From Clostridiales bacterium (lineage in GTDB: Bacteria > Bacillota > Clostridia > DUPQ01): DNA of 64,000 bases. Below are positions 20,778 to 59,880 of the stretch, piece after piece; positions within the stretch are counted from its first letter, which is position 1; each line of letters begins with the position of its first letter. The translations under genes and the position numbers were made by a program. Location: the NCBI GenBank assembly GCA_023145435.1, contig JAGLDS010000002.1:12675-76674 (forward strand), read 5' to 3'. Below the pieces are notes generated by a model. That model saw only the letters and a list, made by a program, of their open reading frames with translations, was not told where the DNA came from and made no database searches.

Positions 20778-20780
20778 TCT

Positions 20781-29362: not shown

Positions 29363-29363
29363 A

Positions 29364-36731: not shown

Positions 36732-36745
36732 AAGAATAGTCTAAA

Positions 36746-37993
36746 TTATTGACAATACTCATCTTCTACTTTCTTAAAAGCATCTATTATCTGATTAATT
36801 TCAATTTCAGTCCAACTTTCATATAAATGTAAGTTAAAACAAGTAGCACATGTTTTTGCAACATTTTCACATATAATATCAGATGCATCACTTTTACCAT
36901 ATTGAGGTGCAGTCCAAGGAAATCCTTTTGTCCCATATGCTTTTTTGTTTATATACCAATCCATTAAGTGCGGTTGAGCAAATGAATAATCAGCTAATAG
37001 TTGAACTCCTTCTGCTATTACAGCTTCTAAGAACTCATTCTTTGAAACTGATATTTTGCTATTATCTATCTCCAATCGTAAAAACCAATAAGAAGGATTA
37101 GAACCATCTATTAGTGTTGGAATACTAATGGTTTTAAGTTTATGTAGTTGAGTAGCCATATATTTGACTAATTGTCTTCTCTTTTCTACAAGTTTTGGTA
37201 ATTTTTTTAATTGTTCAATCCCAATAGTTGCACTTAACTCATCCATATTAAAGTTTAGTGATGCTACAACATTAGTACTACCATCTTCTAACCCAAAAGG
37301 TTTTCCTCTATCAGCATATTGTCTTAATTTCCAATATACATCTTCATTTGTAGAATAAACTACTCCACCTTGACCACCTGTATTAAAGTGTTTTCCAAAC
37401 ATTGTAGAAAAACTAGCCACATGACCAAACGTTCCTACTAACTGTCCATTTAACTCACATAAGTGCGCTTGTGCGCAATCTTCTAAAACTAACAAATCAT
37501 GTTTTTTTGCAATTTCCATTATTGCATGCATATCGCAAGGTTCACCAGTTATATGCGCTACAATTATTGCTTTAGTTTTATCAGTTATTTTTTCTTCAAT
37601 TTTCAAAGGATCCATATTATATGTTCCTATAGCACTATCTATAATAACTGGTATGCAATTATTTAAAACAATTGGCATTATTCCACCTGGATCTGTAATT
37701 GGACTTACAATTACTTCTGAAAAAGGTTCTAGTTCTAAAGCTCTTAACGCAACGTAAACAGCATTAGTACCTGAATTAACACCATCTGCATAGCCTCCAC
37801 CCATTAACTTAACAAAATCATTACAGAATTGTTCTTCTTTTTCACCATTGTAACCAAATGCTTGTCCTGACTCTATGGCTTCATCAAATAATTTATTAAC
37901 TGCATTCTTTTCTTCAATACCAATATTGTATCTATTTTTTAATCCATCTTTTATAAATGGGGTTCCACCATTAATTGCTAATTTACTTTTCAT
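36746..37993 (-). CDS. DegT/DnrJ/EryC1/StrS family PLP-dependent (sugar) aminotransferase
   Basis: 415 aa. SGTNAVYVALRAL, and the PLP-lysine context SFSTMFGKHFNTGGQGG. Confidence 0.88.
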   Translation of the reverse strand: MKSKLAINGGTPFIKDGLKNRYNIGIEEKNAVNKLFDEAIESGQAFGYNGEKEEQFCNDFVKLMGGGYADGVNSGTNAVYVALRALELEPFSEVIVSPITDPGGIMPIVLNNCIPVIIDSAIGTYNMDPLKIEEKITDKTKAIIVAHITGEPCDMHAIMEIAKKHDLLVLEDCAQAHLCELNGQLVGTFGHVASFSTMFGKHFNTGGQGGVVYSTNEDVYWKLRQYADRGKPFGLEDGSTNVVASLNFNMDELSATIGIEQLKKLPKLVEKRRQLVKYMATQLHKLKTISIPTLIDGSNPSYWFLRLEIDNSKISVSKNEFLEAVIAEGVQLLADYSFAQPHLMDWYINKKAYGTKGFPWTAPQYGKSDASDIICENVAKTCATCFNLHLYESWTEIEINQIIDAFKKVEDEYCQ

Positions 37994-38080
37994 TAAATTC
38001 CTCCATTAAAGTTATTTATAATATTATATGAAATTTCCATCTAAAAGAAAATGTCAATCTGCTATTTAACTTAACATTTA

Positions 38081-39289
38081 TTATAATTCGCTAATTTTTA
38101 TATTTTTATTACTAATAATACTCTCATTAGCAGAAATTCCTATCATTGCAGAATCAATACCTGCTTGTAATGAAGCCATATGTCCAAGTGGATCTTTTAT
38201 ATCATCTAAGAATAGCATTTGTAATAATAATTGATCTCCTCCACCATGGTCGCCAGTAGATTTATTAATTACCTTTTCAATATGATTACCATTTATATCA
38301 TAAATGTTGATAGTATAAGTTTTATCATCTTTATGCTCACCTGTATGGTATTCAGCAATTTCTATTCGTCCTTTAGTCCCTAAAATTGATGCTTTAAAAC
38401 CTTCATAAGGATTGTATGCTGTTAATGAATATGTTAGGGTTGTATTTTTCTCATAGAGCACTCTAACTGACATAGTATCATATATATCAATAGATTTATC
38501 AAAAACGCAACCATCTCTATGGTAACCATCTTCAAACTCTGCATCAAAATAGAATTGCTTGAAATAATCTTGATTAATATAATCTACATAAAATTCACAT
38601 TTTTCATTATGTATACAAGTAGAACATCTCTCACCACTTATTTTACCATTTTCACCATAAAATTCTAATGAACCATGTGCAGAAACTGACAATGGGCGTT
38701 TATCTAACCACCAATTTACTAAATCAAAATGGTGGGTTGATTTATGAACTAGTAAACCACCTGACTTATTCATATATCTATGCCATCTTCTGTAATAGTC
38801 TGATCCATGGCTTCTACCTAATAAATATTCAAAATCAACATGATGTATTTCTCCAATAACATTTGTTGTTAGTAATTGCTTAATAGCAGTAACATATGGA
38901 GTGAATCGATAATTGAATGTTATTGTAATATTATTTGTAGATTTTTGATAAGCATCCTTTATAGCTTTGACTTTCTTAGAATCAGTTGCTAGTGGTTTTT
39001 CAACAATTACATCACAATTATATTTTAATACTTTAACAATAAACTCATGGTGATATGCATCTACTGTTGTAATTATTGCACAATCAGGTTTACATTCAAC
39101 CATCATTAAATCAAAATCAGTAAATATTGGTATTTCTGTACCTAACTGTTGATTGATATAATTCATTCTAGTAGTATTGATGTCAAACATCCCTACAATC
39201 CTTGCTTGTTTATTAAAATACTTCACCATATTTTTGGCATAAGTATTATATCCTCTTCCACTAGCTCCAACTAAAACATACTTTTTCAT
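38081..39289 (-). CDS. Gfo/Idh/MocA family NAD(P)-dependent oxidoreductase
   Basis: 402 aa. Rossmann fold VLVGASGRG and EKP motif (VIVEKPLA). C-terminal GDHGGGD motif shared with 22852..24138. Its start overlaps the stop of the upstream adaptor gene (ATGA at 39286-39289). Confidence 0.8.
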   Translation of the reverse strand: MKKYVLVGASGRGYNTYAKNMVKYFNKQARIVGMFDINTTRMNYINQQLGTEIPIFTDFDLMMVECKPDCAIITTVDAYHHEFIVKVLKYNCDVIVEKPLATDSKKVKAIKDAYQKSTNNITITFNYRFTPYVTAIKQLLTTNVIGEIHHVDFEYLLGRSHGSDYYRRWHRYMNKSGGLLVHKSTHHFDLVNWWLDKRPLSVSAHGSLEFYGENGKISGERCSTCIHNEKCEFYVDYINQDYFKQFYFDAEFEDGYHRDGCVFDKSIDIYDTMSVRVLYEKNTTLTYSLTAYNPYEGFKASILGTKGRIEIAEYHTGEHKDDKTYTINIYDINGNHIEKVINKSTGDHGGGDQLLLQMLFLDDIKDPLGHMASLQAGIDSAMIGISANESIISNKNIKISEL

Positions 39290-40374
39290 TTAACTATAAA
39301 AACCTTATCCCCTTCAACAAGTCCACTTAATACTTGTGTATAACCATTTGAACTTAATCCTATTTCAATTTCTCTTATAATTGTTTTATTATTTTCAACA
39401 AAATAAACATACTTTTTATCATCAACATCAGAATATATTGCGACTGTTTCAAGTAATAATATATCTTCTAGTTGAACTTCAACATATATTGCTGTCATTT
39501 CCTGTAAAAAGTATACACTATCAGGAACATTTTTAAAAAGAATATCTATATAATTCATTTCAAAATCATCCCCATATTGAAGAATAAATGTATTTATATC
39601 TCTAAAAATCATTCCATCATAAATTTGATTTATAACTTTAATTTTTATTTCATCTTCATTTTTTAGACCCATAAATTTATAATCTAGACTAGATATGATT
39701 TTTGGTTCTGCAAGTCCAAAATAAATTAATTCTTCATCAATCTCTTTTTCTGTAGAAATCCTTAAAATTCCGTTAGCTTTATTACAAACTAAAGCTATAT
39801 TCCCAATACTTTGATCACCTACTGATTTAAAAATTTCAATTATTTCACCTTCATCCGGTGCATATATAAAGCTATTATTATATAATTCGCGGTAGTCATC
39901 GAGTTGGTATTGTGAGGTAATAGCAATTAAATTATATAATTCTAATTGATACTGTTTTATAAGTTCATCTTCAAACTGCTCTTGTGCCTTTTTATAACGT
40001 ATTTTGGCTTGTTTTGTATAAATTTCTTGATAAAATATTTGCTCAGCAATTTCTTCACTATTTGCTTTAGCAATTAATTGTCCTTTTTCAATGTGATCAT
40101 TTACTCTTACAAGCAGTTCAGTTATAACTGAATTAATTTTACAGTCAATTATCAATACTTCTTCTTCATCAGGAATAAAAGTGCCATATTTACGTCGTTC
40201 TACAATTAAATTTCCAATATACGGAGAAATTGTATTAAGCTCATATTCACTTCCAGATAGTAACTCAGTTATATATATTGTATCTTTTTTAGGTAAATAT
40301 AAGTCACAAGAAGAAAGCAACAATGTTACTATCACTAATATAACAATTAATTCCAATAAATGTTTCTTTAGCAT
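39286..40374 (-). CDS. HlyD/MFP-like periplasmic-adaptor-type lipoprotein, class II (copy 2)
   Basis: 362 aa. Lipobox LLLSSC. Lipoyl-like hairpin VRVNDHIEKGQLIA, coiled-coil region, C-terminal VLSGLVEGDKV. Clearly paralogous to 44392..45459. TAATG overlap with the permease. Confidence 0.72.
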   Translation of the reverse strand: MLKKHLLELIVILVIVTLLLSSCDLYLPKKDTIYITELLSGSEYELNTISPYIGNLIVERRKYGTFIPDEEEVLIIDCKINSVITELLVRVNDHIEKGQLIAKANSEEIAEQIFYQEIYTKQAKIRYKKAQEQFEDELIKQYQLELYNLIAITSQYQLDDYRELYNNSFIYAPDEGEIIEIFKSVGDQSIGNIALVCNKANGILRISTEKEIDEELIYFGLAEPKIISSLDYKFMGLKNEDEIKIKVINQIYDGMIFRDINTFILQYGDDFEMNYIDILFKNVPDSVYFLQEMTAIYVEVQLEDILLLETVAIYSDVDDKKYVYFVENNKTIIREIEIGLSSNGYTQVLSGLVEGDKVFIVK

Positions 40375-43300
40375 TAATCTTCTCCTAGTTTAATAGCTTG
40401 ATCCATCTTAAGTTTATTAATAATACTTTTAATAATAAATATTCCGGCTATAATCATTATAAGTAACATACCATAAATACTAAGGTAATCGTATGGGTCT
40501 TTTTTCATGATAAAATCAAGCATCATCATATTCTCTTCATTAATAAATGAATATATTGGGATAAAGATATTACTTGCAATACTTCCTATTGGAATTGCAG
40601 CTATAATCGCAATTAAAAATACCCAAGCTTGTTCTCCTAAAACAATTAACATTAATTCTGTTTTTCTAATTCCAAGTGATCGCAAAATACCAAATTGTAA
40701 TTCTCGTTTTTTAATTGATACAAACCAGAAAATTATAAAACCAATAGCACAAATAATCAAGCTTATTAAAAAGTTTAATGTTAACGTACTATTCATTGTA
40801 TAAATTGATACTTCTTTTTTCATACTTTCAATTTCATAGTCAGTAAAATGAGAACCAAGTACACCTAAATTATTATCAATCATATACCTAATAACTTCAC
40901 TGTCTTTAACACCTTCTTTTTTCTTAGCAATAAATTTAATATCATTTTCGCTTGTGTATGAAACTAAAAAATTATAATCAACCACACAAAGTCCCATGCT
41001 CTTTTCATCATCTTTAATATATTCGTCTAAAAGTTTGTTGTATTCTGAATTTTTTGTATATCCAGGCCAGTAATCTACAATTTCTAAAATTAATAAATCA
41101 ATTGGTCTATAGCCATCTTCTAAATAGATACGATATGTGTCACCTATTTCTAATTTTTTTTCTAAAGCAACATTCCTAGAAATTATAATTCCGTTTCGGT
41201 ATTTAATTAAAAGACTTAAATAATAATTTAATGGGTGTTCATTAATAGTTTCTCTATACCAAACAGCCTTTGAGTATTCCTCTGGATTAATCCCTAAAAT
41301 CTGTAAATCAATATTATTAGGGTTTTCAACTAGCTTTGTATCAGTATCTTGACTATTACTATAAAAATGTCTGGGAATTTCCTTTTCAATAGGTAGATTT
41401 GTTAAACCTATTGATTGTAGTAAAGGAGTAACCATAATAAAATTTTCATATTCTTTTAAACCTTCATATAATCTTCGCTGATTTTGTAATATTCCTAGTG
41501 TCATTACTTTTTCGTATACTTTTAAATAATAGTATTCGCCATTATAAGGTGGTTTAATCCCTGTATCTTGAAAAATCAATATAGCTAACAAATGTGAAAT
41601 ACGCTGTTCTGTAGGTCTTATTATATAATCAATTGGTTTTATGATTATATCACTTTGATTTTGATGTTTTATCTCATCAATTAAATTTGCGTTAATAGAT
41701 CTTGCACTATTAGCATTAAAAATTCCGATACATACTGCAAACATTAAAAAAATCATAACAGTTTGCCTTATTTTATCTCCACGTTCAGCAAATAATAACG
41801 AGCTATAAAGTGTGACTTGTTTACTTCTCTTACCAATAGAACTAAATAACTTCATCATGAATGGATAAATCCTAGTAAAAAACATACTACTACCAAGCAT
41901 AAAAAAGGACGCAGCTATAAAAATAGGATAATATGAAGCCTGCTCAGAAGTTAGTGTAATAAGTGACCTAAAACTTTGATAATTAATAATTGAATAAATA
42001 GAAATAGTTAGTAAAATAACATCAATATACAGTTTTTCCCAAAATGGTTTATGTTTAAATAGTAATTCATCTGCTTTTAGTTGAATTATGTCATATTTTG
42101 AATAACGAATTACTGGAATTAACATTGATATATTAAAAAATACTAAAGCAACGAAAGCATATAGGAATACTTTCCATGTAACTTTAATTACTATATCGTC
42201 ACGTGAAATAAATTCTAAAAATCCATTCGATGCTCCTAAAAGTTTACAAATAAATACTGCAAGCAAAATCCCTAGAAAATATGATACTATGGAGATAATA
42301 AAACTATTATAAAAATATATTTTAATAATATGCTTTCTAGTAGCTCCTCTACTTTTCATAGTAGCGATTTCATTTTTCTCATTATTAATCAATAAATTAG
42401 TTATCATAGATATATATAGCGCAATCATAAATATAATTGGAATTATTAGCATAACAACTATCAATGATGTATTTTTTACATTATCTTCAAACTTTGCAAT
42501 TAGATGATTAAAATTAGTTTTTTGGCTTAAAAATCCATAATTATCCGTTATCCACTGCTCATTTTTGGCTAACCCTTTTGCGGTTTTGGGCACATCATAT
42601 AATTGGAAAGTATAAAAATCATATAGGTAAAACCAAGAAACTAAACCAATTTTAAATAATTCGTCATATGAGAATTGAGCTTTTAGAATATCAATATCAG
42701 CATATACTTGCTGGTTTGTTAAATTTAAATAACCATTAGTAGTTTTTTTGTCATAAACGATTCCAACAATCTTAAAAGTTCCACCTTTTATGATTTCATC
42801 ATCTAGTAAATAAGTTTCATATGTTTCATCTAACTTGAAATTATTTTGTCTCATAAACGCATCAGTAGCAACGACTTCTAAATAGTCATCATTTTTTTGG
42901 TACATCCGCCCTTTTGAAATTCCAACTAGTTCTTTGAAGTTTTCAATTGCAGTAACATAAACATCAGCATACCCTGAAGGTATTTGATAAATATCTTTAC
43001 CTATGATTGTAATTTCATTTGAATTACTGCTATTTTTTGTTTTATATTTAACAGAAGAAATTTCATTATAACTAGTAATTATATCAGCATGAATTTTTTT
43101 ACTTAAATCACTTTTTGTTTTTTCGTCATATAATTGATAAATAGAGAATTGATTTTCATCAATATATTCAAAATTTGCTTCAAATTGATATGTCATACCA
43201 ATTTCATTACCATTATTAATCATGTCTTCGAATTCGTTTGAAATACTATTATTTATAACAGAATAAGAATACATGGGAATCGCACCTGCCACAGCAATTG

Positions 43301-43376
43301 CTAGTGTACAACAGATTAGCAAACTGACGCTTATCCATCGATTAAATATGATTTTTCGCAAAACTATATTAATCAT
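40374..43376 (-). CDS. fused double-FtsX (MacB-type) ABC permease, about 10 TM with two large extracytoplasmic domains (permease 2)
   Basis: 1000 aa. N-terminal TM, a ~290-aa hydrophilic domain, TM cluster, a second ~270-aa domain, and 3 C-terminal TM helices. Both termini are conserved with 47090..49993 (RKI.FN.W at the N-terminus; MDQA.KLGED at the C-terminus). Confidence 0.85.
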   Translation of the reverse strand: MINIVLRKIIFNRWISVSLLICCTLAIAVAGAIPMYSYSVINNSISNEFEDMINNGNEIGMTYQFEANFEYIDENQFSIYQLYDEKTKSDLSKKIHADIITSYNEISSVKYKTKNSSNSNEITIIGKDIYQIPSGYADVYVTAIENFKELVGISKGRMYQKNDDYLEVVATDAFMRQNNFKLDETYETYLLDDEIIKGGTFKIVGIVYDKKTTNGYLNLTNQQVYADIDILKAQFSYDELFKIGLVSWFYLYDFYTFQLYDVPKTAKGLAKNEQWITDNYGFLSQKTNFNHLIAKFEDNVKNTSLIVVMLIIPIIFMIALYISMITNLLINNEKNEIATMKSRGATRKHIIKIYFYNSFIISIVSYFLGILLAVFICKLLGASNGFLEFISRDDIVIKVTWKVFLYAFVALVFFNISMLIPVIRYSKYDIIQLKADELLFKHKPFWEKLYIDVILLTISIYSIINYQSFRSLITLTSEQASYYPIFIAASFFMLGSSMFFTRIYPFMMKLFSSIGKRSKQVTLYSSLLFAERGDKIRQTVMIFLMFAVCIGIFNANSARSINANLIDEIKHQNQSDIIIKPIDYIIRPTEQRISHLLAILIFQDTGIKPPYNGEYYYLKVYEKVMTLGILQNQRRLYEGLKEYENFIMVTPLLQSIGLTNLPIEKEIPRHFYSNSQDTDTKLVENPNNIDLQILGINPEEYSKAVWYRETINEHPLNYYLSLLIKYRNGIIISRNVALEKKLEIGDTYRIYLEDGYRPIDLLILEIVDYWPGYTKNSEYNKLLDEYIKDDEKSMGLCVVDYNFLVSYTSENDIKFIAKKKEGVKDSEVIRYMIDNNLGVLGSHFTDYEIESMKKEVSIYTMNSTLTLNFLISLIICAIGFIIFWFVSIKKRELQFGILRSLGIRKTELMLIVLGEQAWVFLIAIIAAIPIGSIASNIFIPIYSFINEENMMMLDFIMKKDPYDYLSIYGMLLIMIIAGIFIIKSIINKLKMDQAIKLGED

Positions 43377-43393
43377 TAACAGTTTTGTAATTG

Positions 43394-44389
43394 TTAATTG
43401 GTGTTAACAATTACCTCATCTCCTTCTTGAAGACCAATCAAAATTTCAATCCATCCCCCAAGTTCTTTTCCTTTTGATATTTCACGTTCGGTCATCACAC
43501 CATTTTCAAGAACATAGACAAACTCTCTACCAGCAGCCTCATGTAACCACCCTTTTTTTATAGCTATTGTCTGATTTACTCGATCTAAAATTATTTCGAC
43601 TTTAAATAATTGCCCAATATCTTTAAGTCTTATAGCTTCAGTTTTTGTATCAATAATAATTATTTCTTCTTTTTTCTTAATTTCGCTCACAGTTGCTTCA
43701 ACTATTTCATCTTTAGTTATATACAAATTAACAACTGACCCAACTATTAACCCTGGTATATCAGGGTCTGTAAATGAAATAAATGTATCACTTTCATCAA
43801 CTACTGTAACAATTCCATTACTTGGAGTAACATATTTATTAACAATAACCTTTATTGAATCAACCACACCATCAAATGTTGCATAAATATTCAAATCATC
43901 AACTTCTTCTTGTAATTTATCATATTGATATTGAGTAATTTTAAAATCAAGTAATGCAATATCTAAATCATATTTTCCATTACCAGTTGTATCATATATT
44001 TTTTGAAATTTTTCAATTTTTAATTTTTCTATTTGATAGGTTATTTCCATATCTCTTGCTTGCTTTTCTAAATCGCTGTTGTTTAAGGTAGCTAATAGTT
44101 GTCCCTTTGAAACTTCCTCACCTCTTATAGGTAGAATTCTTTCAATATACCCAGATGTCAAAAACGAATAAGTTTTCTCTTGTATTGGGTGAACTTTAGC
44201 ATAAAGAGTTTTCGAATCATATAAATCAACTTTAACAATAATCTCTGTTAAATAGTTAGGTTCTTTTTTTACATACTCCGGAATAGTAAGAGGATTAACA
44301 ATCACTTTTTGACATCCTATAAGTGAAAACATAAATAATAAACCTATAATCCACAATATTCTTTTTCTAATTTTTATATTATCCATCAA
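43394..44389 (-). CDS. HlyD/MFP-like adaptor-type lipoprotein, class I (copy 2)
   Basis: 331 aa. Lipobox FSLIGC. Hairpin IRGEEVSKGQLLATL. C-terminal LIGLQEGDEV. Paralogous to 50003..51001. Confidence 0.72.
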   Translation of the reverse strand: MMDNIKIRKRILWIIGLLFMFSLIGCQKVIVNPLTIPEYVKKEPNYLTEIIVKVDLYDSKTLYAKVHPIQEKTYSFLTSGYIERILPIRGEEVSKGQLLATLNNSDLEKQARDMEITYQIEKLKIEKFQKIYDTTGNGKYDLDIALLDFKITQYQYDKLQEEVDDLNIYATFDGVVDSIKVIVNKYVTPSNGIVTVVDESDTFISFTDPDIPGLIVGSVVNLYITKDEIVEATVSEIKKKEEIIIIDTKTEAIRLKDIGQLFKVEIILDRVNQTIAIKKGWLHEAAGREFVYVLENGVMTEREISKGKELGGWIEILIGLQEGDEVIVNTN

Positions 44390-44391
44390 CT

Positions 44392-45459
44392 CTACCTACT
44401 CTTCAATACTTTATCGCCTTCCATAAGGCCACTTTTCACTTCATAAAAAATACCATCAGTAATACCAACTTCAATAGTCCTAAACTTAATTTCATTATCA
44501 GCTACTACATATGTATAAAATGTTCCATCATCATTTGGATAAACAGTTGAAATAGGAATAACCATTACATCATATGCTTCCTCTTCTATATATCTAATAG
44601 TTGTAGTTTTTCCTAAAATCAACTTTTCTGGTAAACCTATAAATGCTATCTGGCCATATACAACATCTCCAAAATAATCATATGCTAATGAATACTGTGA
44701 AGAAGTTCTAAAAACATATCCGTTATATTTATTACCGTCATAAAGAATCTTAATTTTCCCATCATTATTTAACTTTCCACTATCTAAGCTCATTAGTAAT
44801 GCATCAGTTGGGGCAAGATTATCAGTTGCTGGTATTTCATATTGAACTAAAAAATTACTTAATGGACAAATTCCTAGCACATCGCCTTTAGCTGAATCTC
44901 CTTCAAATCTAAAAATTTCAGTAATAGTTCCAGATGAGGTTGCATATAGGTAATGATCAACTTGTTTCTCATATAAATCAGATAAATAATTTTCATATGC
45001 CTCTAAGGATAAACGGGCAAATTCTAAGGTATAAAAATCAACTTTTCCAATGTTATATAATCCTAATTGCTTATCATAATTCATTTTAGATTTTTCTACA
45101 GTAATTTCTTGTTTAAACACTTGTTCATTAATGACTTTCATATCAAGAATTCCCACCAATTGATTTTTTTTAACAACTTCACCCACTTTTACATATAATT
45201 CATTAATTGTTCCAAGAATAGTACAACTTACAATATCAATATTTTCAATATCAGCAACAATTATAGCTTCTTTATCATATACAATTAATAAATCACCTTT
45301 GATAACATTTATAGTTGGTAAAATTAGTTTTTCTGAAGGTAATAGTTCAGGTTCATATATTGTATTTTCAACTGGCATAAAATACATACACCCTGTAAAT
45401 AGTAGTGACATAACTATTAACAACACTGTTAATAAAAAATATTTTTTATGATTCTTCAT
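44392..45459 (-). CDS. HlyD/MFP-like adaptor-type lipoprotein, class II (copy 1)
   Basis: Track ORF starts at the TTG at 45486. The ATG at 45459 (MKNHKKYF...LLFTGC lipobox) has an AGGAAG Shine-Dalgarno at good spacing. Hairpin VKVGEVVKKNQLVG. C-terminal VKSGLMEGDKV. Confidence 0.7.
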   Translation of the reverse strand: MKNHKKYFLLTVLLIVMSLLFTGCMYFMPVENTIYEPELLPSEKLILPTINVIKGDLLIVYDKEAIIVADIENIDIVSCTILGTINELYVKVGEVVKKNQLVGILDMKVINEQVFKQEITVEKSKMNYDKQLGLYNIGKVDFYTLEFARLSLEAYENYLSDLYEKQVDHYLYATSSGTITEIFRFEGDSAKGDVLGICPLSNFLVQYEIPATDNLAPTDALLMSLDSGKLNNDGKIKILYDGNKYNGYVFRTSSQYSLAYDYFGDVVYGQIAFIGLPEKLILGKTTTIRYIEEEAYDVMVIPISTVYPNDDGTFYTYVVADNEIKFRTIEVGITDGIFYEVKSGLMEGDKVLKSR

Positions 45460-46423
45460 TATCATCTTCCTGTCTATATATGACAATCTTTTCGTCTTCT
45501 AAGTCCATTTTAATACGGCTATTTTTAGAGATACCAGCTGCGCCTAAATATTCTTCTGGTAACTTTAAGCGTCCATGCCTATCAACAACCACCAACTCTT
45601 CATGTGTTTCGCTTTCTTCAACACCTGACATTCTATCAAGCTCTTCTAGTTCTTTTTTATAGCTAATTTTACGAATGTACTCACTTGATGTACGGCCATC
45701 AGAAATTGCTACAACTCTATCCACATTTTTAGCAACTCCTCTATCATGTGTAACGATTATAATAGTTACACCTGTTTCACTATTTAATTTTCTAAAAGCA
45801 TTAAATATATGTTTACCGGTTTCTGAATCAACAGCTCCAGTTGGTTCATCTGCTAATATTATCTTAGGTTCATTTGCCATGGCTATGGCAATAGCTACAC
45901 GTTGTTGTTCGCCACCTGAAAGTTGATTAAGTTTATTTCTCATACGTTCTTCTAATCCAACTATTTTTAATAATTCTGCACTTCTTTTTTTAAAATCAGT
46001 CCTATTAGCCAAAATCATTGGGAGTTCTACATTCTGCTTAGCAGATAAATAAGGAATTAGATTTCTTGCATTATTTTGCCACACAAACCCTACTGTGTTT
46101 CGTTTATAGTCTGTCAAAGCAGTTTTTTTAACTCTAAGGAGATTATTTCCATCAACAATTAATTTACCCGCCGACGGCCTATCAAGACCACCAATCATAT
46201 TTAATAGAGTTGATTTCCCGCTACCACTGTTTCCAATAATAGCCATCATCTCTCCATATTTAATTTCCAAGTCAAGGCCTTGTAATGCTACAACTTCAGT
46301 ATCTTTTGTTTTGTAAATTTTTACAAGATTCTCACAAGTTATAACATTTTTAGGATCATAATAATTTTCATCTTCTCCAGTATATAAATTCGTATTATTA
46401 TCGTTCATCAATAACTTCACCAT
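45446..46423 (-). CDS. MacB-type ABC ATP-binding protein with a ~80-aa C-terminal extension (NBD2)
   Basis: 325 aa (alternative ATG at 46408). Walker A GNSGSGKST, LSGGEQQR, ILADEPT, VTHD. The tail ELVVVDRHGRLKLPEEYLGAAGISKNSRIKMDLEDEKIVIY resembles a SpoVT/AbrB swapped-hairpin half. Confidence 0.88.
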   Translation of the reverse strand: MVKLLMNDNNTNLYTGEDENYYDPKNVITCENLVKIYKTKDTEVVALQGLDLEIKYGEMMAIIGNSGSGKSTLLNMIGGLDRPSAGKLIVDGNNLLRVKKTALTDYKRNTVGFVWQNNARNLIPYLSAKQNVELPMILANRTDFKKRSAELLKIVGLEERMRNKLNQLSGGEQQRVAIAIAMANEPKIILADEPTGAVDSETGKHIFNAFRKLNSETGVTIIIVTHDRGVAKNVDRVVAISDGRTSSEYIRKISYKKELEELDRMSGVEESETHEELVVVDRHGRLKLPEEYLGAAGISKNSRIKMDLEDEKIVIYRQEDDNEES

Positions 46424-47078
46424 CCTCTAATGAAATAACATGATCAGCAATTTCAATCATACTTGGGTCATGGGTGGTCATGACTATAGTTAATCCTGAT
46501 TCTGTTACTAATGTTTTAAAGAGTTTTACAATTTGTAATCCTAAATGTGTATCTAGTTCAGCCGTAGGCTCATCAGCAAATACAATTCTAGGTTTATTTG
46601 CAATAGCTCTAGATATTGCCACCCGTTGTTGTTCTCCACCTGATAATTGGAATGGTTTATGATTCATTCTCTTTTCAAGTCCAACTTTAATTAAACTGCT
46701 TCTAGTTAATTGTTTCCAATCTTTTCTAAGCGCTCCTGAAACTCGTAAACCAAATTCTACATTTTCATAAGCATCCATAACCGATATTAGAGCAACAGAC
46801 TGAAAAACAAAACCAATATTCTTTCTCCTTAGCATATCCCTTTCAGCGTCACTTATGGTTGTTATTTCTTTTTTGTCAAATAGTACTTGCCCGCTGGTTG
46901 GTCGGTCAAGTCCTCCTAATATATTCATTAAAGTGGTTTTACCAGATCCTGAAGTTCCCCTAAGGATTGTAAAGGTGCCTTCTTCAATCTTAATATTAAT
47001 ATCTTTTAAGGCATGAATTGTCTGTCTACCTTGAATAAAATCTCTACATATGCCTTTTGTTTCATAAATATAACTCAA
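46398..47078 (-). CDS. MacB-type ABC ATP-binding protein (NBD1)
   Basis: 226 aa. Walker A GTSGSGKTT, LSGGEQQR, VFADEPT, TTHD. Confidence 0.92.
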   Translation of the reverse strand: MSYIYETKGICRDFIQGRQTIHALKDINIKIEEGTFTILRGTSGSGKTTLMNILGGLDRPTSGQVLFDKKEITTISDAERDMLRRKNIGFVFQSVALISVMDAYENVEFGLRVSGALRKDWKQLTRSSLIKVGLEKRMNHKPFQLSGGEQQRVAISRAIANKPRIVFADEPTAELDTHLGLQIVKLFKTLVTESGLTIVMTTHDPSMIEIADHVISLEDGEVIDER

Positions 47079-47089
47079 TATACTACCCT

Positions 47090-49993
47090 TTAATCCTCTC
47101 CTAATTTAACAGCTTGATCCATTTTAATATGAGTAATGAATCGTCCGATTATAGAAATACCGATAACTATCATGGCTGCTACAATAATATAAATTCTATA
47201 GTAATCTTCTTTAAATGAGAACACTTTAAATTCAATTAATCGCCCACTTTGTGCACTAATAAGTTCAAATAGCGGAACAAAGACATCAGACGATATTCCT
47301 CCAATTACAATTCCAAGAATTATTGCCACTGCTGATATTAATAATTGTTCCCAGAAAATTATAAGAATAAGTTCTTTTTTACTTAATCCCATAGCTCTAA
47401 AAATACCAAATTGTAGTACCCGTTGCCTAATAGATAGAATCCAGAAAATTATAAATCCAGCGCCACATATAATCATTGTAACAATAAAATCTAATGTAAG
47501 CATTCCATTCATACCTAGTACCATTGGGTCTTTTTTTTGTTCAGACACTTCAAAATCCGCATATTTACCATATGAAATAGTAATATCATTTCCTGATAAA
47601 AAGGTGTTTATTTCACTATCTAATACACCTTCATTTTTCTTTAGCCAAATCATATAATCAATATCACCTGCATTTGATAAAAGCAAATCATAATGCATAA
47701 CTACAAATCCAAATGAAACATCATCACTAGTTACTGTTCTATTTGTTGCAAAATCAAATCCTGTATAAGGATTATAGCCAGGCCAGTTGTCTACAACTGC
47801 TAATATTGGTGCTTCAATAACATTATCAATGTCAGGAACCTCAATTGAAATGAAATCTCCAGGGTTTACTCCTAATTCATTTGCTGTAAATGAAGAAACA
47901 ATTACACCATCTGGATGGGATGCCATTAAATTTAAGTAAAAGTTAATATGAACAGTTAACAAATCATCTCGAGTCCATACTACCTTACCATAATCTTCAG
48001 GAGTTATCCCTATTATTGTTGACCCTAATGCAGCTCCACCATATGTATTATATTTTTTAATCAGTGCTTTATAACTAGCAACTTTTGTAGCAGTATCTAC
48101 TAATTCACTTGATTTAATTTTTTCATATTTTAGTAAATTTTTAGTAATTACTTCTGAGCCTTCTTCTACTACAACTTCATTATTTTCATCTACTACCCAG
48201 TTACTTAAAGTAATTGCAACATCAGTAGCAAATTGGTGTTTTACAATATCTACAAGGTTTTCATTTATGGTTCTAGCACTATTAGCATTAAAAATCCCTA
48301 CTCCTAAAGCTAATATCAAGAAAATCATTATAAATTGTTTCATAGAACCACCACGACCTACATATGTAAATGCTGCATACATAGGTGGTGACATAAATCG
48401 CTTAGTTGATTTAAAAAGTAAGTTAATTAAAAATGGATAAATTCTCATTATTACTAAACTAAGTCCTAAAATAAAGAAAGTAACTGCAAAGAATATCAAA
48501 TAATCAATCTGTCCATCTCCTGATAAACCAATACTGTCTTTAAATGTATTGTAATTATTTAGTGCCCATAAAGATACAGCAAGTAATATTATATCTAAAT
48601 ATAATTTTTGCCAAAATGGTTTTTTGCTTATTATATCTTTACCTTGTTTGTATTGTACAATAGTAAACTTTGATGCCTTAATAGCTGGGAACAACATCAT
48701 TATTATAAAGAATATTGAGCATATAAAACCATAAAATATTGCTTCCCAACTCAAATTAATTTCCATATGAGCTCGATTAACAAATTCCATGAAACCATTT
48801 GACGCTCCTAATAGTCTACATAAGAATATTGCCGTTATAATTCCGATTATAAATGAAATAATTCCAATAAATAAACTTTCATAAAAATAAATCTTAAATA
48901 TTTGTTTTCTAGAGGCACCACGACTTTCTAACATAGCAATTTCATTTTTTTCTTGTTCCATAATCAATTGTGCAATCATAGAAACATAAAAACTAATCAT
49001 TAAAATAACAGGAATAACTAATAAAATAAGCAAACCTGACAATCGACTAGCACGATCCATGTAATCTTGTAAAATTGATGCAAATGACATTCTATGTTTC
49101 ATATATCCATAGTTGTTAACAATCCATTTACCATTATCATCAAATTGTGTTAAAATATTTTGAGTTTCTGTCAGTAACAACTCATAATAATTATATGCAT
49201 AATACCAACTAGTGGCATCTAAGCTATACTCCTCAGTTTTAATAAAATTATTATAAAAAATATCTGCATCCATATAAAGACCATAACTATCAAATGTATA
49301 ATATGACGATTTGTCTTCTTGCATTTCTATAACACCAACAATTTTAAACCTGTCAATATATTCAATATCATTTTTGGCTTCAATAATTGCATATTCCCCA
49401 TTTAAAACATAATTGTTACGCTTCATAATTTCTGAGCTAACAATAACTTCATACAAAAACTCTGTTTTTCCAGTTAAAGGATTAGTGGTTTCAATAGGTT
49501 CCTTATTATACATCCGACCAGATATCACTTTTACATTAGTTTCTAAATTTGTCATTCCATAAATATTAATACGATTTAATCTAGTACTTGGAAACATCAG
49601 TTCCTTTGCTACTTCTTCTAAATAAAGGTCCCATCCTCTCACATCTACTGAAAGATAATTAGAAGTTCCTAGCAAAGTATAGTCAGTCAAAATACTCATG
49701 GGAATTTTTTTCGACATATCTTCTTTAATTTTTTTATCATAATATTCAAATAAATTAATTCGATCTTCTAACACATTAAGATTTGTCCAACTACTAATAA
49801 ATTCGTAAGTAGCTGGGTGAATATTAGTTTCTTCTTGTGTTGTTTCAAAATCCTTAATTAGCATGCGTTGAAGCATGCCACTTGAATACATTGGGATAGA
49901 GCTAACAACAGCTACTGCTAATATGCTGCCAATTAAAAGACATAATACCAACCATTTATTATTAAATATTTTTCTAAGTACCAATCTAAACAT
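47090..49993 (-). CDS. fused double-FtsX (MacB-type) ABC permease (permease 1)
   Basis: 967 aa. Same architecture as 40374..43376 and a diverged paralog of it. Confidence 0.85.
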   Translation of the reverse strand: MFRLVLRKIFNNKWLVLCLLIGSILAVAVVSSIPMYSSGMLQRMLIKDFETTQEETNIHPATYEFISSWTNLNVLEDRINLFEYYDKKIKEDMSKKIPMSILTDYTLLGTSNYLSVDVRGWDLYLEEVAKELMFPSTRLNRINIYGMTNLETNVKVISGRMYNKEPIETTNPLTGKTEFLYEVIVSSEIMKRNNYVLNGEYAIIEAKNDIEYIDRFKIVGVIEMQEDKSSYYTFDSYGLYMDADIFYNNFIKTEEYSLDATSWYYAYNYYELLLTETQNILTQFDDNGKWIVNNYGYMKHRMSFASILQDYMDRASRLSGLLILLVIPVILMISFYVSMIAQLIMEQEKNEIAMLESRGASRKQIFKIYFYESLFIGIISFIIGIITAIFLCRLLGASNGFMEFVNRAHMEINLSWEAIFYGFICSIFFIIMMLFPAIKASKFTIVQYKQGKDIISKKPFWQKLYLDIILLAVSLWALNNYNTFKDSIGLSGDGQIDYLIFFAVTFFILGLSLVIMRIYPFLINLLFKSTKRFMSPPMYAAFTYVGRGGSMKQFIMIFLILALGVGIFNANSARTINENLVDIVKHQFATDVAITLSNWVVDENNEVVVEEGSEVITKNLLKYEKIKSSELVDTATKVASYKALIKKYNTYGGAALGSTIIGITPEDYGKVVWTRDDLLTVHINFYLNLMASHPDGVIVSSFTANELGVNPGDFISIEVPDIDNVIEAPILAVVDNWPGYNPYTGFDFATNRTVTSDDVSFGFVVMHYDLLLSNAGDIDYMIWLKKNEGVLDSEINTFLSGNDITISYGKYADFEVSEQKKDPMVLGMNGMLTLDFIVTMIICGAGFIIFWILSIRQRVLQFGIFRAMGLSKKELILIIFWEQLLISAVAIILGIVIGGISSDVFVPLFELISAQSGRLIEFKVFSFKEDYYRIYIIVAAMIVIGISIIGRFITHIKMDQAVKLGED

Positions 49994-50002
49994 GTAATTC
50001 TC

Positions 50003-51001
50003 CTAATAAATAATGGCTAATTCGCCTTCGACTAATCCAGATATTACTTCGTAGTATCTGCCATTAGTCTGTCCAAGTACAACTTCTTTTTCTATTGGAA
50101 CACCATCTTCTAATACTTTAGCGAAAGTTATACCTCCAAATGTTTTAACAGCTTTTTGATTAACCATTAATACATTTTCAACTGTGTCTACATTTTGTGT
50201 TACCATAACAAATGTTCCAATTCTCCAATCTTCGCTAAATTCATTTGGTAAAACCACCATACTATTATGGTTTGAAATTGTTATTACTCCTGTAGTTTTA
50301 TAATTTAGTGATTCAATAACTACAGGTATATCAGCATCAAATTTATAAATTCCACTTCCAATACAAGTTAATTTCATCTCATTATTTAAAACAACTTTAA
50401 AAACTAAATTTCCTTTTGTTACTTGATCGCCCTCTTCAAGAGGTGCTAAATAAGAAATTGTTCCATTATCATCTGCAAAAATCTGTGATTGTTCTTTAAT
50501 TAATAATAAATCATTATATGAGTTTACGACTTTTTGATAATTTAATTTAGCAATTTTATAATCATACTCACTTATTTGATTATTATTAAATAACTCGCTA
50601 TTTCTATCAAAAGTTAATTGCGCTCTTTTCAGTTCTATTTCTTCATCTCTCATATCTTTATCTAAATTACCAGTATCAAGTTCAGCAATAACTTGCCCCG
50701 CTACTATTTCATCATTTTTACTCACAAAGAATTGTAAAAATGAACCTCCTAAATGCTCAAACGAGTAAGCTATTTCATTTATAGGTCTAAATGAACCAAA
50801 CGTACTAACATCTTTTGAAACAGTTCCATATTCTACTGCTTCTGTTTTATATTCAGTTGATTTTGATTCAATAATTGGCGGTGATAATCTCTCATCTTCT
50901 TTAGGTAAAAATACACATCCAGATAAGAAAGTGAATAGCATCACAACCACTATGATTATTAATATATTTTTTTTCACAATAAACACTCTAACCTTTTTCA
51001 T
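50003..51001 (-). CDS. HlyD/MFP-like adaptor-type lipoprotein, class I (copy 1)
   Basis: 332 aa. Lipobox FLSGC. Hairpin VSKNDEIVAGQVIAEL. C-terminal VISGLVEGELA. First gene of the locus. Confidence 0.72.
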   Translation of the reverse strand: MKKVRVFIVKKNILIIIVVVMLFTFLSGCVFLPKEDERLSPPIIESKSTEYKTEAVEYGTVSKDVSTFGSFRPINEIAYSFEHLGGSFLQFFVSKNDEIVAGQVIAELDTGNLDKDMRDEEIELKRAQLTFDRNSELFNNNQISEYDYKIAKLNYQKVVNSYNDLLLIKEQSQIFADDNGTISYLAPLEEGDQVTKGNLVFKVVLNNEMKLTCIGSGIYKFDADIPVVIESLNYKTTGVITISNHNSMVVLPNEFSEDWRIGTFVMVTQNVDTVENVLMVNQKAVKTFGGITFAKVLEDGVPIEKEVVLGQTNGRYYEVISGLVEGELAIIY

Positions 51002-51012
51002 TATCTTAATCG

Positions 51013-51021
51013 ATTATAGCA
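51013..51021 (-). promoter_or_regulatory. putative extended -10 promoter (TGcTATAAT) only 11 nt upstream of the first ABC-locus start codon
   Basis: Minus strand: TGC (51021-51019) plus TATAAT (51018-51013), then cgattaagata, then the ATG at 51001. No Shine-Dalgarno in between. Confidence 0.4.
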
Positions 51022-51095
51022 TTAAAAAAAATAATGTAGTATACTTTTTGTTGAATGTTCACAAATTATTTACAATTCACATTTAAGGAGCTTTT

Positions 51096-53216
51096 ATGAA
51101 CTACCCATTTGAAAATCAACAATTATCTTTTGAAAAACGAGCAGAAATCTTACTATCGTTAATGACTATTGAGGAAAAGATTTCTCAAACACTTCATTTC
51201 TCCCCTGCAATTGATAGATTATCAATTAAAGCTTATACCTGGTGGAATGAAGCCTTGCATGGTATAGCACGAGCTGGTACTGCTACAGTGTTTCCTCAAG
51301 CCATTGCTTTAGCTGCTACTTTTGATAAGCAAATGGTTTATCAAACTGCTACATATATTTCAGATGAAGCAAGAGCTAAACATCACGAATACAAAAGGCA
51401 AGGTGACATGGGTATTTATAAGGGATTAACAATGTGGAGTCCTAATATTAATATTTTTAGAGATCCTAGATGGGGCCGCGGACATGAAACTTATGGTGAA
51501 GACCCTTACTTAACTGGAAGAATGGGTATTTCATTTATAAAGGGAATGCAAGGAAATCATCCTAAATACCTAAAAACAATTGCAACTCCTAAACATTATT
51601 TAGTTCATAGTGGTCCTGAAAGTGATCGCCATCATTTTGATGCAATAGTTTCAAAAAAAGACCTTAGGGAAACTTATCTTCCAGCATTTAAAGACTGTAT
51701 CGTAGAAGGAAAAGCTTATTCAATAATGGGAGCATATAATAGAGTTAATGGAGAAGCTTGTTGTGCCTCTAGAACATATCTTTTAGATGTTTTACGAGAA
51801 GAATTTTCATTTAAGGGATTTGTTGTATCTGATTGTCATGCAATAATTGATTTACACTTACACCATAATTTAACAAAAACTGTACAAGAATCAGCTGCCA
51901 TGGCTGTTATTAACGGTTGTGATTTAAACTGTGGTAAAGCCTTTGAATCATTAACACTTGCGTATGAAGAAAATATAATTACAGAAGAACAAATCAATAA
52001 AGCTGTTAAACGATTATTAGTCGCTAGATTTAAATTAGGAATGTTTGATGATGAGGATAAAGTTCCTTATTCTTCCATACCTTATGATGATAATGATAGT
52101 AATAAGCATCGTAATTATGCAATTAAAGTAGCTGAAAAATCATTGGTTTTGCTAAAAAACAATGGAATTCTACCTTTAAAATCCAATGTGAAAAGTATTG
52201 CAGTTGTTGGGCCAAATGCAGATGATAGAGAAGTTCTTCTAGCCAATTATAAGGGAATCCCTTCAAGATATAGTACTATTTTAGAAGGTATTATTGAAAA
52301 ATTTAGCGATTGTGAAATCAAATATTCAAAAGGTTGTCATATTGCCAATGAATCATTACGTGATGATGAAACTTCACTACTTTCAGAAGCACTATCTTGT
52401 GCTAAAGCCTGCGATGTAACAATTATAGTAACTGGAATCAACTCACAAATTGAAGGTGAAGAAGCTGATCCTCGTTATCCTGAATTTGGTGGTGGTGATA
52501 GAGATGATATAAAACTACCAGGGTTACAAAACCAGCTAATATCTAAAATCGCAGAAATTAATAAGCCAATAATTGTTGTTAATTTAAGCGGTAGCTGTGT
52601 TTCCTTGGTTACAGCCAATAAATATGCAGATGCAATAGTACAAGCATGGTACCCAGGAGCTTTAGGTGGAAAAGCAGTTGCAAATTTATTAGCTGGTGAT
52701 TTTTCACCAAGTGGTAAGTTACCTGTTACTTTTTATAGTTCAATTAGTCAACTTCCCCCTTATGACCAATATGAATTAACTACTCAAACATATCGCTATC
52801 TAAAAGAATCTCCCCTATTTCCATTTGGGTTTGGCTTAACTTATTCTAAATTTTCATTTGATAATATTATTATTAAGAAAAAAAGTGATTATACATATGA
52901 AGCTAAGATCAAAGTCATGAATCATGGCCCCTATGACAGTAATAATGTTATTCAGTTATATATAAAGACACCAAAGACATCTATGAAATCTCCTAATTAT
53001 CAGCTAAAGCGCTTTAGAAATAAGTTTTTTAAAGTTAACCAACAAATTGAAATAACTTTCAAATTGGATGAACAAGCATTATCCTTTATTAACAATGAAG
53101 GAAAGCGAGTTATATTAGATGGAGAATACACAATATATATTGATGAAGGGCAACCAAATAAAAATACACAAAAAGCGTTTTTAACTATTGATGTAAAAAG
53201 TGAAATAAAATATTAA
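51096..53216 (+). CDS. GH3 beta-glucosidase / beta-xylosidase (BglX-like), cytoplasmic
   Basis: 706 aa. RDPRWGRGHETYGEDP, KHYLVHSGPE, and the nucleophile context GFVVSDCHA. AAGGAG Shine-Dalgarno. No signal peptide. Confidence 0.9.
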   Translation: MNYPFENQQLSFEKRAEILLSLMTIEEKISQTLHFSPAIDRLSIKAYTWWNEALHGIARAGTATVFPQAIALAATFDKQMVYQTATYISDEARAKHHEYKRQGDMGIYKGLTMWSPNINIFRDPRWGRGHETYGEDPYLTGRMGISFIKGMQGNHPKYLKTIATPKHYLVHSGPESDRHHFDAIVSKKDLRETYLPAFKDCIVEGKAYSIMGAYNRVNGEACCASRTYLLDVLREEFSFKGFVVSDCHAIIDLHLHHNLTKTVQESAAMAVINGCDLNCGKAFESLTLAYEENIITEEQINKAVKRLLVARFKLGMFDDEDKVPYSSIPYDDNDSNKHRNYAIKVAEKSLVLLKNNGILPLKSNVKSIAVVGPNADDREVLLANYKGIPSRYSTILEGIIEKFSDCEIKYSKGCHIANESLRDDETSLLSEALSCAKACDVTIIVTGINSQIEGEEADPRYPEFGGGDRDDIKLPGLQNQLISKIAEINKPIIVVNLSGSCVSLVTANKYADAIVQAWYPGALGGKAVANLLAGDFSPSGKLPVTFYSSISQLPPYDQYELTTQTYRYLKESPLFPFGFGLTYSKFSFDNIIIKKKSDYTYEAKIKVMNHGPYDSNNVIQLYIKTPKTSMKSPNYQLKRFRNKFFKVNQQIEITFKLDEQALSFINNEGKRVILDGEYTIYIDEGQPNKNTQKAFLTIDVKSEIKY

Positions 53217-56096: not shown

Positions 56097-56108
56097 TAAT
56101 ATCCTATC

Positions 56109-57071: not shown

Positions 57072-57073
57072 GT

Positions 57074-59878: not shown

Positions 59879-59880
59879 AC

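Follow-up and report, generated by a model that had tools for sequence, protein, structure and literature searches.

Eight adjacent genes on the minus strand of a 64,000-nucleotide stretch from a Clostridiales bacterium (GenBank assembly GCA_023145435.1, contig JAGLDS010000002.1, positions 12,675 to 76,674; this whole stretch is called the window below) encode two large permeases, one pair of ATP-binding cassette (ABC) ATPases and four adaptors. On balance, we favour the explanation that the locus represents an expansion, confined to one lineage, of a Bacillota family of type VII ABC systems that depend on membrane fusion proteins (MFPs), a family that is widespread but uncharacterised. In this clade the core comprises six genes, namely adaptor A, the permease Perm1, the nucleotide-binding domain proteins NBD1 and NBD2, adaptor C and adaptor B, with three distinct putative lipoprotein adaptors. 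An earlier reading of the same DNA, referred to here as the original prediction, had described a duplicated machine. Our results showed, in place of two equal modules, a six-gene core followed by a dispensable cassette of a second permease (Perm2) and a second class II adaptor (AdII_2 or C2), which close relatives lack.

Open reading frame (ORF) calling gave the eight co-directional genes at 39286-51001, in the same order as originally predicted. The predicted gene positions held, except that the end coordinate given there, 51021, lies 20 nt beyond the first start codon (51001). In reading direction the genes are:

50003..51001, minus strand: adaptor A (AdI_1), putative lipoprotein, MacA/YknX-like MFP, 332 aa; lipobox LSGC, TIGR01730
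47090..49993, minus strand: Perm1, predicted fused YbbP-type type VII ABC permease, 967 aa; two FtsX stretches, hydropathy, AlphaFold2, Foldseek
46398..47078, minus strand: NBD1, ABC ATPase of the LolD/MacB/FtsE-like class, 226 aa; ABC_tran 112 bits
45446..46423, minus strand: NBD2, ABC ATPase with an AbrB-like C-terminal tail, 325 aa; ABC_tran 112 bits
44392..45459, minus strand: adaptor C1 (AdII_1), putative class II lipoprotein, 355 aa; lipobox FTGC; longest ORF reaches 45486
43394..44389, minus strand: adaptor B (AdI_2), putative lipoprotein adaptor, 330-331 aa; lipobox LIGC, TIGR01730, HlyD_D23
40374..43376, minus strand: Perm2, accessory paralogous fused permease, 1000 aa, predicted plan of ten transmembrane (TM) segments; two FtsX stretches, identity to Perm1
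39286..40374, minus strand: adaptor C2 (AdII_2), putative class II lipoprotein, 362 aa; lipobox LSSC, similarity to AdII_1

A widespread core and an accessory cassette

A permease profile search against one genome per GTDB species detected at least 521 relatives. Those listed were mostly metagenome-assembled genomes (MAGs) of Clostridia and included Caldicoprobacter and Ruminiclostridium; protein-database searches added Xylanivirga and, more distantly, Clostridium estertheticum, Paenibacillus and Lederbergia. ORFs were called in the best 80 of these relatives and classified against the eight window proteins. Seventy-one of the 80 loci could be assessed, the other nine being truncated. An adaptor lay directly upstream of the permease in 80/80 loci, and NBD1 and NBD2 stood next to a single permease in 37/80. 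The arrangements were:

One permease, NBD1-NBD2 and one adaptor: 30 loci
One permease, NBD1-NBD2 and two or three adaptors: 7 loci (5 with three adaptors; L003 is a truncated eight-gene locus)
Adaptor(s) and permease, with 10 kb on each side free of ABC ATPase ORFs: 32 loci (of the 71 assessable)
Two permeases, the eight-gene form: 2 loci

The four-gene core was found in the cultured species Clostridium estertheticum, and Lederbergia citri has the four core genes arranged as NBD-adaptor-permease-NBD. A single permease is combined with three adaptors in the sister clade L007/L008, whose permease is 52% identical and whose flanking genes are the same, and also in a distant clade (L011/L024/L085) with a 37% identical permease. 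Among named species, Xylanivirga thermophila has an adaptor-permease pair without a nearby ATPase. Because 32/71 loci had no ATPase within 10 kb and the docking loops of the permeases are invariant (see below), ATPases acting in trans appear to be normal for this family.

The cassette behaved differently from the core. Perm2 and AdII_2 were jointly absent from the close relatives L092 and L094. The genes following A-P-N1-N2-C-B (P, permease; N1 and N2, the ATPases) were:

L094: DegT, an intact 332-aa GDSL-like gene, M55
L092: Gfo
L093: Perm2 (61% identical), then the contig end
L005, L004 and the window: Perm2, AdII_2, Gfo, DegT

In a tree of the six shared genes, L093 and L094 were sisters in 200/200 bootstraps, and the Perm2 carriers were monophyletic in 0/200. 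Since L094 is sister to a carrier and the carriers are not monophyletic, the cassette has a history of more than one loss or gain and can be dispensed with. Perm2 and AdII_2 are therefore an accessory pair of genes placed after adaptor B.

Where it is present, the cassette is under purifying selection. The ratio of nonsynonymous to synonymous substitution rates (dN/dS) ranged from 0.06 to 0.21 across all eight genes. Between the window and L004 it was 0.108 for Perm2 and 0.095 for Perm1, and 0.21 for AdII_2, the fastest of the eight, against 0.16-0.19 for the other adaptors. Both cassette ORFs are intact in the window, L004 and L005, with synonymous divergence from L005 being saturated. These data bear on the proposal that Perm2 and AdII_2 are redundant, functionally irrelevant leftovers of a duplication that are being lost. 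The patchy distribution, with absence from L092 and L094, and the fast evolution of AdII_2 would fit it, but the ORFs have stayed intact despite that saturation, the dN/dS values are close to those of Perm1 and the other adaptors, and Perm2 keeps 97 of 140 family-conserved positions including the docking motifs, which makes the proposal very improbable.

Database search with Perm2 found only three close orthologs, and the next matches were Perm1-type proteins of its own clade (33-35% identical). Scanning of metagenomes with a Perm2 profile gave one distant match with 25% identity. In a tree of 84 permeases, Perm2 formed a long branch on the group of the window plus L006-L008. Its identity dropped with distance, from 36% to its own Perm1 through 33% to L007 and 31% to L011 to 28-29% for the rest. 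The gene order is compatible with an ancestor arranged as A-P-N1-N2-C-B, the order still seen in L011/L024, L092 and L094, that acquired P'-C' at its end; hypothetically, the entire operon could have been duplicated and A', N1', N2' and B' then lost. Perm2 could have originated in an old duplication followed by losses, in a phase of rapid change, or by transfer from a relative outside the sample.

Two further observations concern the family. Members with the four-gene core were seen on contigs binned as Spirochaetes or Spirochaetales MAGs, which would be diderms (L034, L049 and L051); this could be horizontal transfer or mis-binning. The 'orphan' adaptor-permease pairs of Ruminococcus-like genomes and Xylanivirga adjoin PNP_UDP_1 and/or Amidohydro_1 genes, downstream of the permease in L088 and L090 and upstream in L083. 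The same gene types are present at 19488-22849 of the window, about 17 kb downstream of the ABC locus, and the proximity may be old synteny or coincidence.

Both permeases are predicted to have the YbbP architecture

Pfam FtsX (PF02687, cut-off 25.5 bits) matched two stretches in each permease, with 77 bits for Perm1 and 83 bits for Perm2. Hydropathy analysis showed nine clear TM segments plus a weaker tenth. The AlphaFold2 model of Perm1, built with 71 homologs, had a predicted local distance difference test score (pLDDT) of 83 and a predicted TM-score (pTM) of 0.75; it contained ten long helices arranged 4+2+4 and two beta-rich outside domains, the extracytoplasmic domains ECD1 (about residues 34-321) and ECD2 (about 573-824). 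In both hydropathy and model, the unit TM1-ECD-TM2-4 occurs twice per chain. Each permease is accordingly predicted to combine two FtsX modules with two linker helices and a pair of outside domains, and the two modules agree with the original prediction. All structure modelling was of monomers.

Foldseek comparison of the Perm1 model with the PDB gave E. coli YbbP as the top match (9ge6_A, E 5e-22), aligned end to end over about 1000 columns, and BceB, MacB, LolE/LolC, HrtB and YtrF ranked after it. The periplasmic domains of LolE and MacB were also matched (5udf and 3ftj, target-normalised TM-score about 0.6), and a precomputed MacB_PCD annotation is present on some family members. By sequence, a permease profile matched PDB entries weakly and in the FtsX TM region only (best LolF, 2e-6). 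Both permeases belong to the type VII ABC or MacB-FtsX superfamily.

Perm1 and Perm2 are 35-38% identical (pairwise E 3e-121), as befits the diverged paralogs that had been predicted. Their C-termini, KMDQAVKLGED and KMDQAIKLGED, share the predicted MDQA.KLGED, of which LGE is invariant across the family. Two distinct cytoplasmic docking loops were recognised, EKNEIA..SRGA after TM2 and R.LQFG..R..G after TM8, and both are invariant in the 71-sequence permease alignment, 'orphan' permeases included. When Perm2 was compared with Perm1 by region, identity was highest in the C-terminal tail (83%), intermediate in TM7 (59%) and the docking loops (54-58%), and lowest in the outside domains (26-29%). 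This pattern would be expected of a paralog with the same motor interface and a changed working end.

The start of Perm2 needs correction in public records. Public gene calls begin it at Met35 (966 aa), after an internal AGGAG, and lose TM1; the first 34 codons occupy 43275-43376 of the window (minus strand). The start of the 1000-aa form has no Shine-Dalgarno sequence. These 34 codons align to the Perm1 N-terminus, and in L004 and L005 the encoded protein is conserved while the codons differ synonymously, so the alignments indicate that the long form is correct. In public records the permease of a Clostridiales MAG is annotated merely as 'FtsX-like permease family protein', and the identical locus was found in two public read-set assemblies.

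An old pair of two different ATPases

NBD1 and NBD2, both matching ABC_tran at about 112 bits, are 38% identical, so the single pair of two different ATPases was correctly predicted. Both carry the Walker A, Q-loop, LSGGE, Walker B-DE and H-loop motifs. Across the family the catalytic motifs are intact in 41/41 NBD1 and 36/36 NBD2 sequences, with the signature [LM]SGGE. Both proteins are LolD/MacB/DevA/FtsE-like and fall below all equivalog cut-offs; LolD and DevA lead the NCBIfam matches of NBD1, both under cut-off, and against LolD (TIGR02211, cut-off 308) the two score 202 and 220 bits.

One member of the pair has about 225 aa and the other about 300-340 aa, always. Since the pair stands beside a single permease in 37 loci, the heterodimer would be old and family-wide and no product of the permease duplication. 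The predicted heterodimer thus gained comparative support, whereas its tie to the duplication fell away, the two-ATPase pair being the family norm with a single permease. Comparison among loci likewise suggests that two different ATPases work in one complex with one transmembrane unit. It has to be weighed against a scheme in which NBD1 and NBD2 each homodimerise and each homodimer works with a different one of the two permeases. The equal number of ATPases and permeases in the operon, two of each, would suit this scheme, but at those 37 loci one short and one tailed ATPase always accompany a single permease, which has two different, separately invariant docking loops, and we give it hardly any credence.

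The last ~85 aa of NBD2 (45449-45703, minus strand) form an AbrB/MazE/MraZ-like swapped-hairpin domain. Its motif, ETHEEL.V.DR.GRLQIP…, is conserved in the family. A profile of 28 NBD2 tails matched AbrB N-terminal domain structures (E ~3e-4), and Pfam detected MazE_antitoxin in 22/28 and MraZ in 25/28 of these tails (best E 4e-8). In an exhaustive phmmer search with the tail, it was located C-terminally in nearly all of the 103 matched proteins. Swapped-hairpin domains normally fold as dimers. There is only one such tail per ATPase pair, and this lone half-barrel could pair two complexes or dock a regulator.

Three old adaptor groups

A lipobox after a hydrophobic N-terminal segment was found in all four adaptors, in agreement with the original prediction, and a lipobox-like motif in 88/95 family adaptors. 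The adaptors are probably lipoproteins, as judged from this motif. Adaptor A lies directly upstream of Perm1. AdI_2 scored 111 bits with TIGR01730 (RND_mfp, cut-off 94.9), and the other adaptors scored 47-76 bits, under the cut-off, with AdI_1 at 76. AdI_2 also matched HlyD_D23 (E 5e-7), and YknX_C is among the precomputed adaptor annotations.

For class II, a profile matched MacA (4dk1/4dk0) with E 7e-13 over residues 62-353, nearly the full length. AdII_2 and AdII_1 are 29% identical (E 5e-42), and a word-based homolog search with AdII_1 returned only eight relatives, all of its own clade. The AlphaFold2 model of AdII_1, built from nine sequences, was confident only in the hairpin and the C-terminal domain. 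Its top Foldseek match was MacA, which has little weight coming from a low-confidence model, and the MacA assignment therefore rests on the profile match instead.

A neighbour-joining tree of 44 adaptors (simple distances, 200 bootstraps) supported a class II clade of AdII_1, AdII_2 and their homologs in L007 and L011/L024 (80%). AdI_1 grouped with the upstream adaptor of L007/L008 (83%) and AdI_2 with their second adaptor (87%). A joint clade of AdI_1 and AdI_2 was recovered in 23% of bootstraps, and their grouping as lineage-specific duplicates in 0/200. L007 and L008 have no second permease, yet they possess orthologs of both. This result argues that there are three old adaptor orthogroups, A, B and C, of which only C is duplicated here (C1, AdII_1; C2, AdII_2). 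Of the two adaptor classes originally proposed, class II was recovered and class I dissolved into two older orthogroups. In L093 (14548-15664), gene calling split the class II adaptor C1 into a 311-aa and a 75-aa piece, pointing to a frameshift or to an error in the assembly of that contig.

Perm2 most likely borrows the ATPase pair of the operon

A trivial recent loss of a second ATPase pair, named in the original prediction as something that would undo its reading, was not seen: no such pair lies beside Perm2 in L004 and L005, the relatives with this region assembled. One other ABC ATPase was detected in the 64-kb window, and it belongs to an ABC-2 system. Because the carriers have no second pair, the family has unlinked ATPases and the docking elements are conserved, and because Perm2 is under purifying selection and sits inside the operon, we infer that Perm2 most likely borrows the operon's ATPase pair. 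The sharing of one NBD heterodimer by alternative assemblies, as originally suggested, is thus the favoured reading of these sequences. A more detailed picture, which is less likely than not, would have one NBD1/NBD2 motor time-shared by the two permeases, each topped by a mixed ring of lipoprotein adaptors in which A and B are common to both and C1 or C2 goes with one permease only.

The working model would be as follows. The core permease would be a single-chain pseudo-heterodimer of YbbP architecture, driven by a dedicated NBD1/NBD2 heterodimer, so that the asymmetry of the fused permease would have its counterpart in that of the ATPase pair. Either of the two permeases could form a complex with NBD1/NBD2. 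The closure of the ATPases, driven by ATP, would be passed through the stalk helices to the outside domains by mechanotransmission, for which MacB, LolCDE and YbbAP are precedents (PMC5985334, PMC12646458). The outside domains may then extract or expel a substrate that is associated with the membrane or located in the wall zone, by way of adaptors assembled into a hetero-oligomer, with Perm2/C2 being an optional second head that adds a second outside specificity.

Several points weigh against this model. The binding of Perm2 to NBD1/NBD2 is deduced from sequence, and a further ATPase pair is possible beyond the 64-kb window. The Perm1/Perm2 split (36%) compares with ~77% identity among species, and Perm2 has diverged far more than the species split would lead one to expect. 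All trees were neighbour-joining trees from simple distances. The class II adaptor model is poor (pLDDT 56) and of a monomer, and it is the lipobox motif that the lipoprotein status depends on. Nor is there a clue to the substrate, given that no conserved partner gene was found in the 80 loci, and no two-component system or bacteriocin gene in the window.

The alternative that survives best is that Perm2 and AdII_2 are energised by ATPases encoded elsewhere and that their position in the operon is incidental. The 32/71 loci without an ATPase within 10 kb, as in Xylanivirga thermophila, imply that linkage is not needed. However, Perm2 lies inside an operon with the only family-type ATPase pair of the window, 17 nt from the preceding gene and with no terminator-like site, its docking loops remain close to those of Perm1, and the sole other ABC ATPase is the ABC-2 one. 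We regard this alternative as unlikely.

Somewhat less probable still is that the system is not a pump but an FtsEX-like mechanotransducer that switches, with ATP, an extracytoplasmic enzyme or a wall-remodelling partner. Consistently with such a role, the locus directly follows murG and a gene of the metallo-beta-lactamase (MBL) fold, both in the window clade and in the distant L011/L085, type VII systems often use partner proteins (PMC12646458), and YbbAP works with an esterase. Yet MacA/YknX-type adaptors, typical of efflux assemblies, were found at every locus, and there is no EnvC/PcsB/CwlO-like coiled-coil hydrolase nearby. The linkage to the cell-wall genes is lacking in most loci, and neighbour clustering gave no recurrent partner.

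Comparison with known systems

The fused permease with two outside domains described in the original prediction is not new. In the YbbP architecture, which was missing from the background of that prediction, two MacB units are fused via two linking helices and there are two periplasmic domains (PMC5985334). YbbAP-TesA (PDB 9ge6/9ge7; PMC12646458) likewise has a single-chain permease with two FtsX modules, two outside domains and separate ATPases. YbbP is the best structural match of Perm1, yet sequence identity is no more than 13-14%. In YbbAP one gene, YbbA, supplies the ATPase as a homodimer, whereas the locus described here encodes two different ATPases, of which NBD2 carries the AbrB-like tail; the partner of YbbAP is the GDSL esterase TesA, in place of which MacA-like adaptors are found here; and YbbAP is a diderm system with no second permease, while a second permease is present here. 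In its working model, YbbAP extracts hydrophobic compounds from the membrane by mechanotransmission (PMC12646458).

MacAB-TolC, Spr0693-0695 (PMC5768738) and YknWXYZ (PMC5985334, PMC4338810) share with our locus an FtsX-fold permease with a MacB-type outside domain, a MacA/YknX-family adaptor and a LolD/MacB-class ATPase, and the monoderm examples also work without an outer-membrane channel. These pumps use homodimeric 4-TM permeases, one ATPase species and one adaptor gene. In contrast, here the permease is fused and asymmetric, the ATPases are probably heterodimeric, and four adaptor genes fall into three orthogroups; the adaptors are putative lipoproteins, and a YknW-like gene is missing. 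What adaptors do in monoderms is acknowledged to be an open question (PMC4338810). A precedent for hetero-oligomeric adaptors is TriABC-OpmH of Pseudomonas aeruginosa (PMC4338810), in which each paralog is required, but this is a proton-driven resistance-nodulation-division (RND) transporter of a diderm with two adaptors versus three or four here.

BceAB also has a 10-TM fused FtsX permease with separate ATPases and gave the second-best structural matches (E 8e-16 to 1e-13). Unlike the permeases studied here, which have two outside domains, BceB has one, between TM7 and TM8; BceA forms a homodimer, and the system uses no adaptor and is paired with the BceRS two-component system, none such being found among the scanned window ORFs.

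Membership in two further groups was rejected. For LolCDE, the permeases scored 32 and 26 bits with TIGR02212 (cut-off 362), and the ATPase scores with LolD are those given above. For the 'duplicated orphan permease' of Acidobacteria (ADOP, TIGR03434), they scored 38 and 34 bits against a cut-off of 622, although both are duplicated FtsX permeases; presumably, as the name implies, ADOP often has no adjacent ATPase gene.

One ATPase serving several membrane components is familiar from importers. Group II energy-coupling factor (ECF) transporters share EcfAA'T, and MsmK/MsiK serve several sugar permeases. The sharing proposed here is alike in that one ATPase (hetero)dimer would serve several membrane components, but those systems are importers with unrelated folds. 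To our knowledge, no type VII or MacB-fold system with shared ATPases has been described, and all type VII ABC cases that have been studied (MacB, LolCDE, FtsEX, BceAB and YbbAP) have a single ATPase species and at most one adaptor. Our literature search found no description of this permease-ATPase-adaptor family or of its layout, in line with the original view that the composite arrangement is not a named system. The fold and the general mechanism are already known; the heterodimeric tailed ATPase pair, the three-adaptor core and the ATPase-less permease cassette are undescribed.

Transcription unit and neighbouring genes

Two features bound the eight genes:

51002..51095, no strand: divergent intergenic region of 94 nt between adaptor A and a plus-strand GH3 gene
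38081..39289, minus strand: Gfo/Idh/MocA oxidoreductase by Pfam match, its start overlapping AdII_2 by 4 nt

With the longest ORFs, the spacings along the operon were +9, +11, -26, -41, +2, +17 and -1 nt. An ATG of AdII_1 at 45459 is preceded by an AGGAAG ribosome-binding site and is most likely the true start; with it the spacing of -41 becomes -14, and the originally predicted range of -26 to +17 nt fits. No terminator-like hairpin was found in 35500-51400, against 3.5 expected. The promoter scan was uninformative (116 sites against 112.5 expected, chance level), and an Rfam scan of the whole window, whose G+C content is about 28%, gave no match. The region 51002..51095 is the only non-coding gap big enough to hold an operon promoter. 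The tight spacing and the lack of terminator-like sites support the predicted single transcript, and co-transcription of the operon seems likely from this layout. Since Gfo overlaps AdII_2 by 4 nt, the transcript would continue past 39286, the left boundary originally given; the Gfo/Idh/MocA gene is probably co-transcribed with AdII_2, and it is no part of the pump. The overlap recurs in L004 and L005. Gfo occurs in L092, which has no Perm2, but not in L094 or L007/L008, and this patchy presence marks the site after adaptor B as a hotspot of gene gain and loss.

A gene for a DegT-family sugar aminotransferase (36746-37993, minus strand) follows Gfo. A link to amino-sugar or glycolipid export through Gfo and DegT was considered and rejected, as their NCBIfam matches were generic and sub-threshold and Gfo is absent from L094 and L007/L008. 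No glycosyltransferase cluster and no kinase or response-regulator domains were detected among the scanned window ORFs.

At 35776-36745 (minus strand), a 202-aa ORF (36056-36664) is the front of a frameshifted SGNH/GDSL-like hydrolase gene. Its homologs are intact in L007/L008 (331-338 aa) and L094 (332 aa), and tblastn splits the window copy across two frames; it is either a pseudogene or an assembly error. In L007 the gene falls below the Pfam cut-off. A YbbAP-TesA-like link to this gene was rejected because the gene lies three genes away, carries a frameshift in the window and at most loci is not found next to the system.

The upstream surroundings are the dcw cell-wall cluster. Genes for a penicillin-binding protein (PBP) with PASTA domains, murE, murF, mraY, ftsW and murG, and a small MBL-fold gene, precede the ABC locus (53213-62073, minus strand), and addAB, obg and the L21 gene lie farther off, in a chromosomal housekeeping context. 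The dcw-MBL-ABC linkage also occurs in a distant clade (L011/L085, 1-8909; permease 37% identical) and is missing from most family loci. Neighbour clustering over the 80 loci identified no universal partner gene; response regulators and kinases, sugar ABC importers, GH26 and DUF5696 recurred in subsets only. Elsewhere in the window, an unrelated ABC system with one ABC_tran ATPase and two ABC-2-type membrane proteins is encoded at 27136-30302 (minus strand), and two Peptidase_M55 (D-aminopeptidase) paralogs at 16808-17602 and 34957-35775 (both minus strand), the latter covering only profile positions 1-194 of 264.

Implications for the family

The family spans at least 521 species-level genomes, mostly of uncultured Clostridia, and in monoderms it would join a YbbP-type fused permease to lipoprotein adaptors and to an ATPase heterodimer that looks obligate and includes a tailed ATPase. 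The natural variants of the window clade (core only, core with Gfo, core with Perm2/C2) bear on ATPase sharing and on the roles of the extra adaptors. The cultured carriers of the four-gene core, Clostridium estertheticum and Lederbergia citri, put the basic system within experimental reach. In conclusion, if Perm1 and Perm2 do share one motor, this would be a modular design of one engine with exchangeable heads, resembling that of the ECF importers, in the MacB-fold machines of monoderms.

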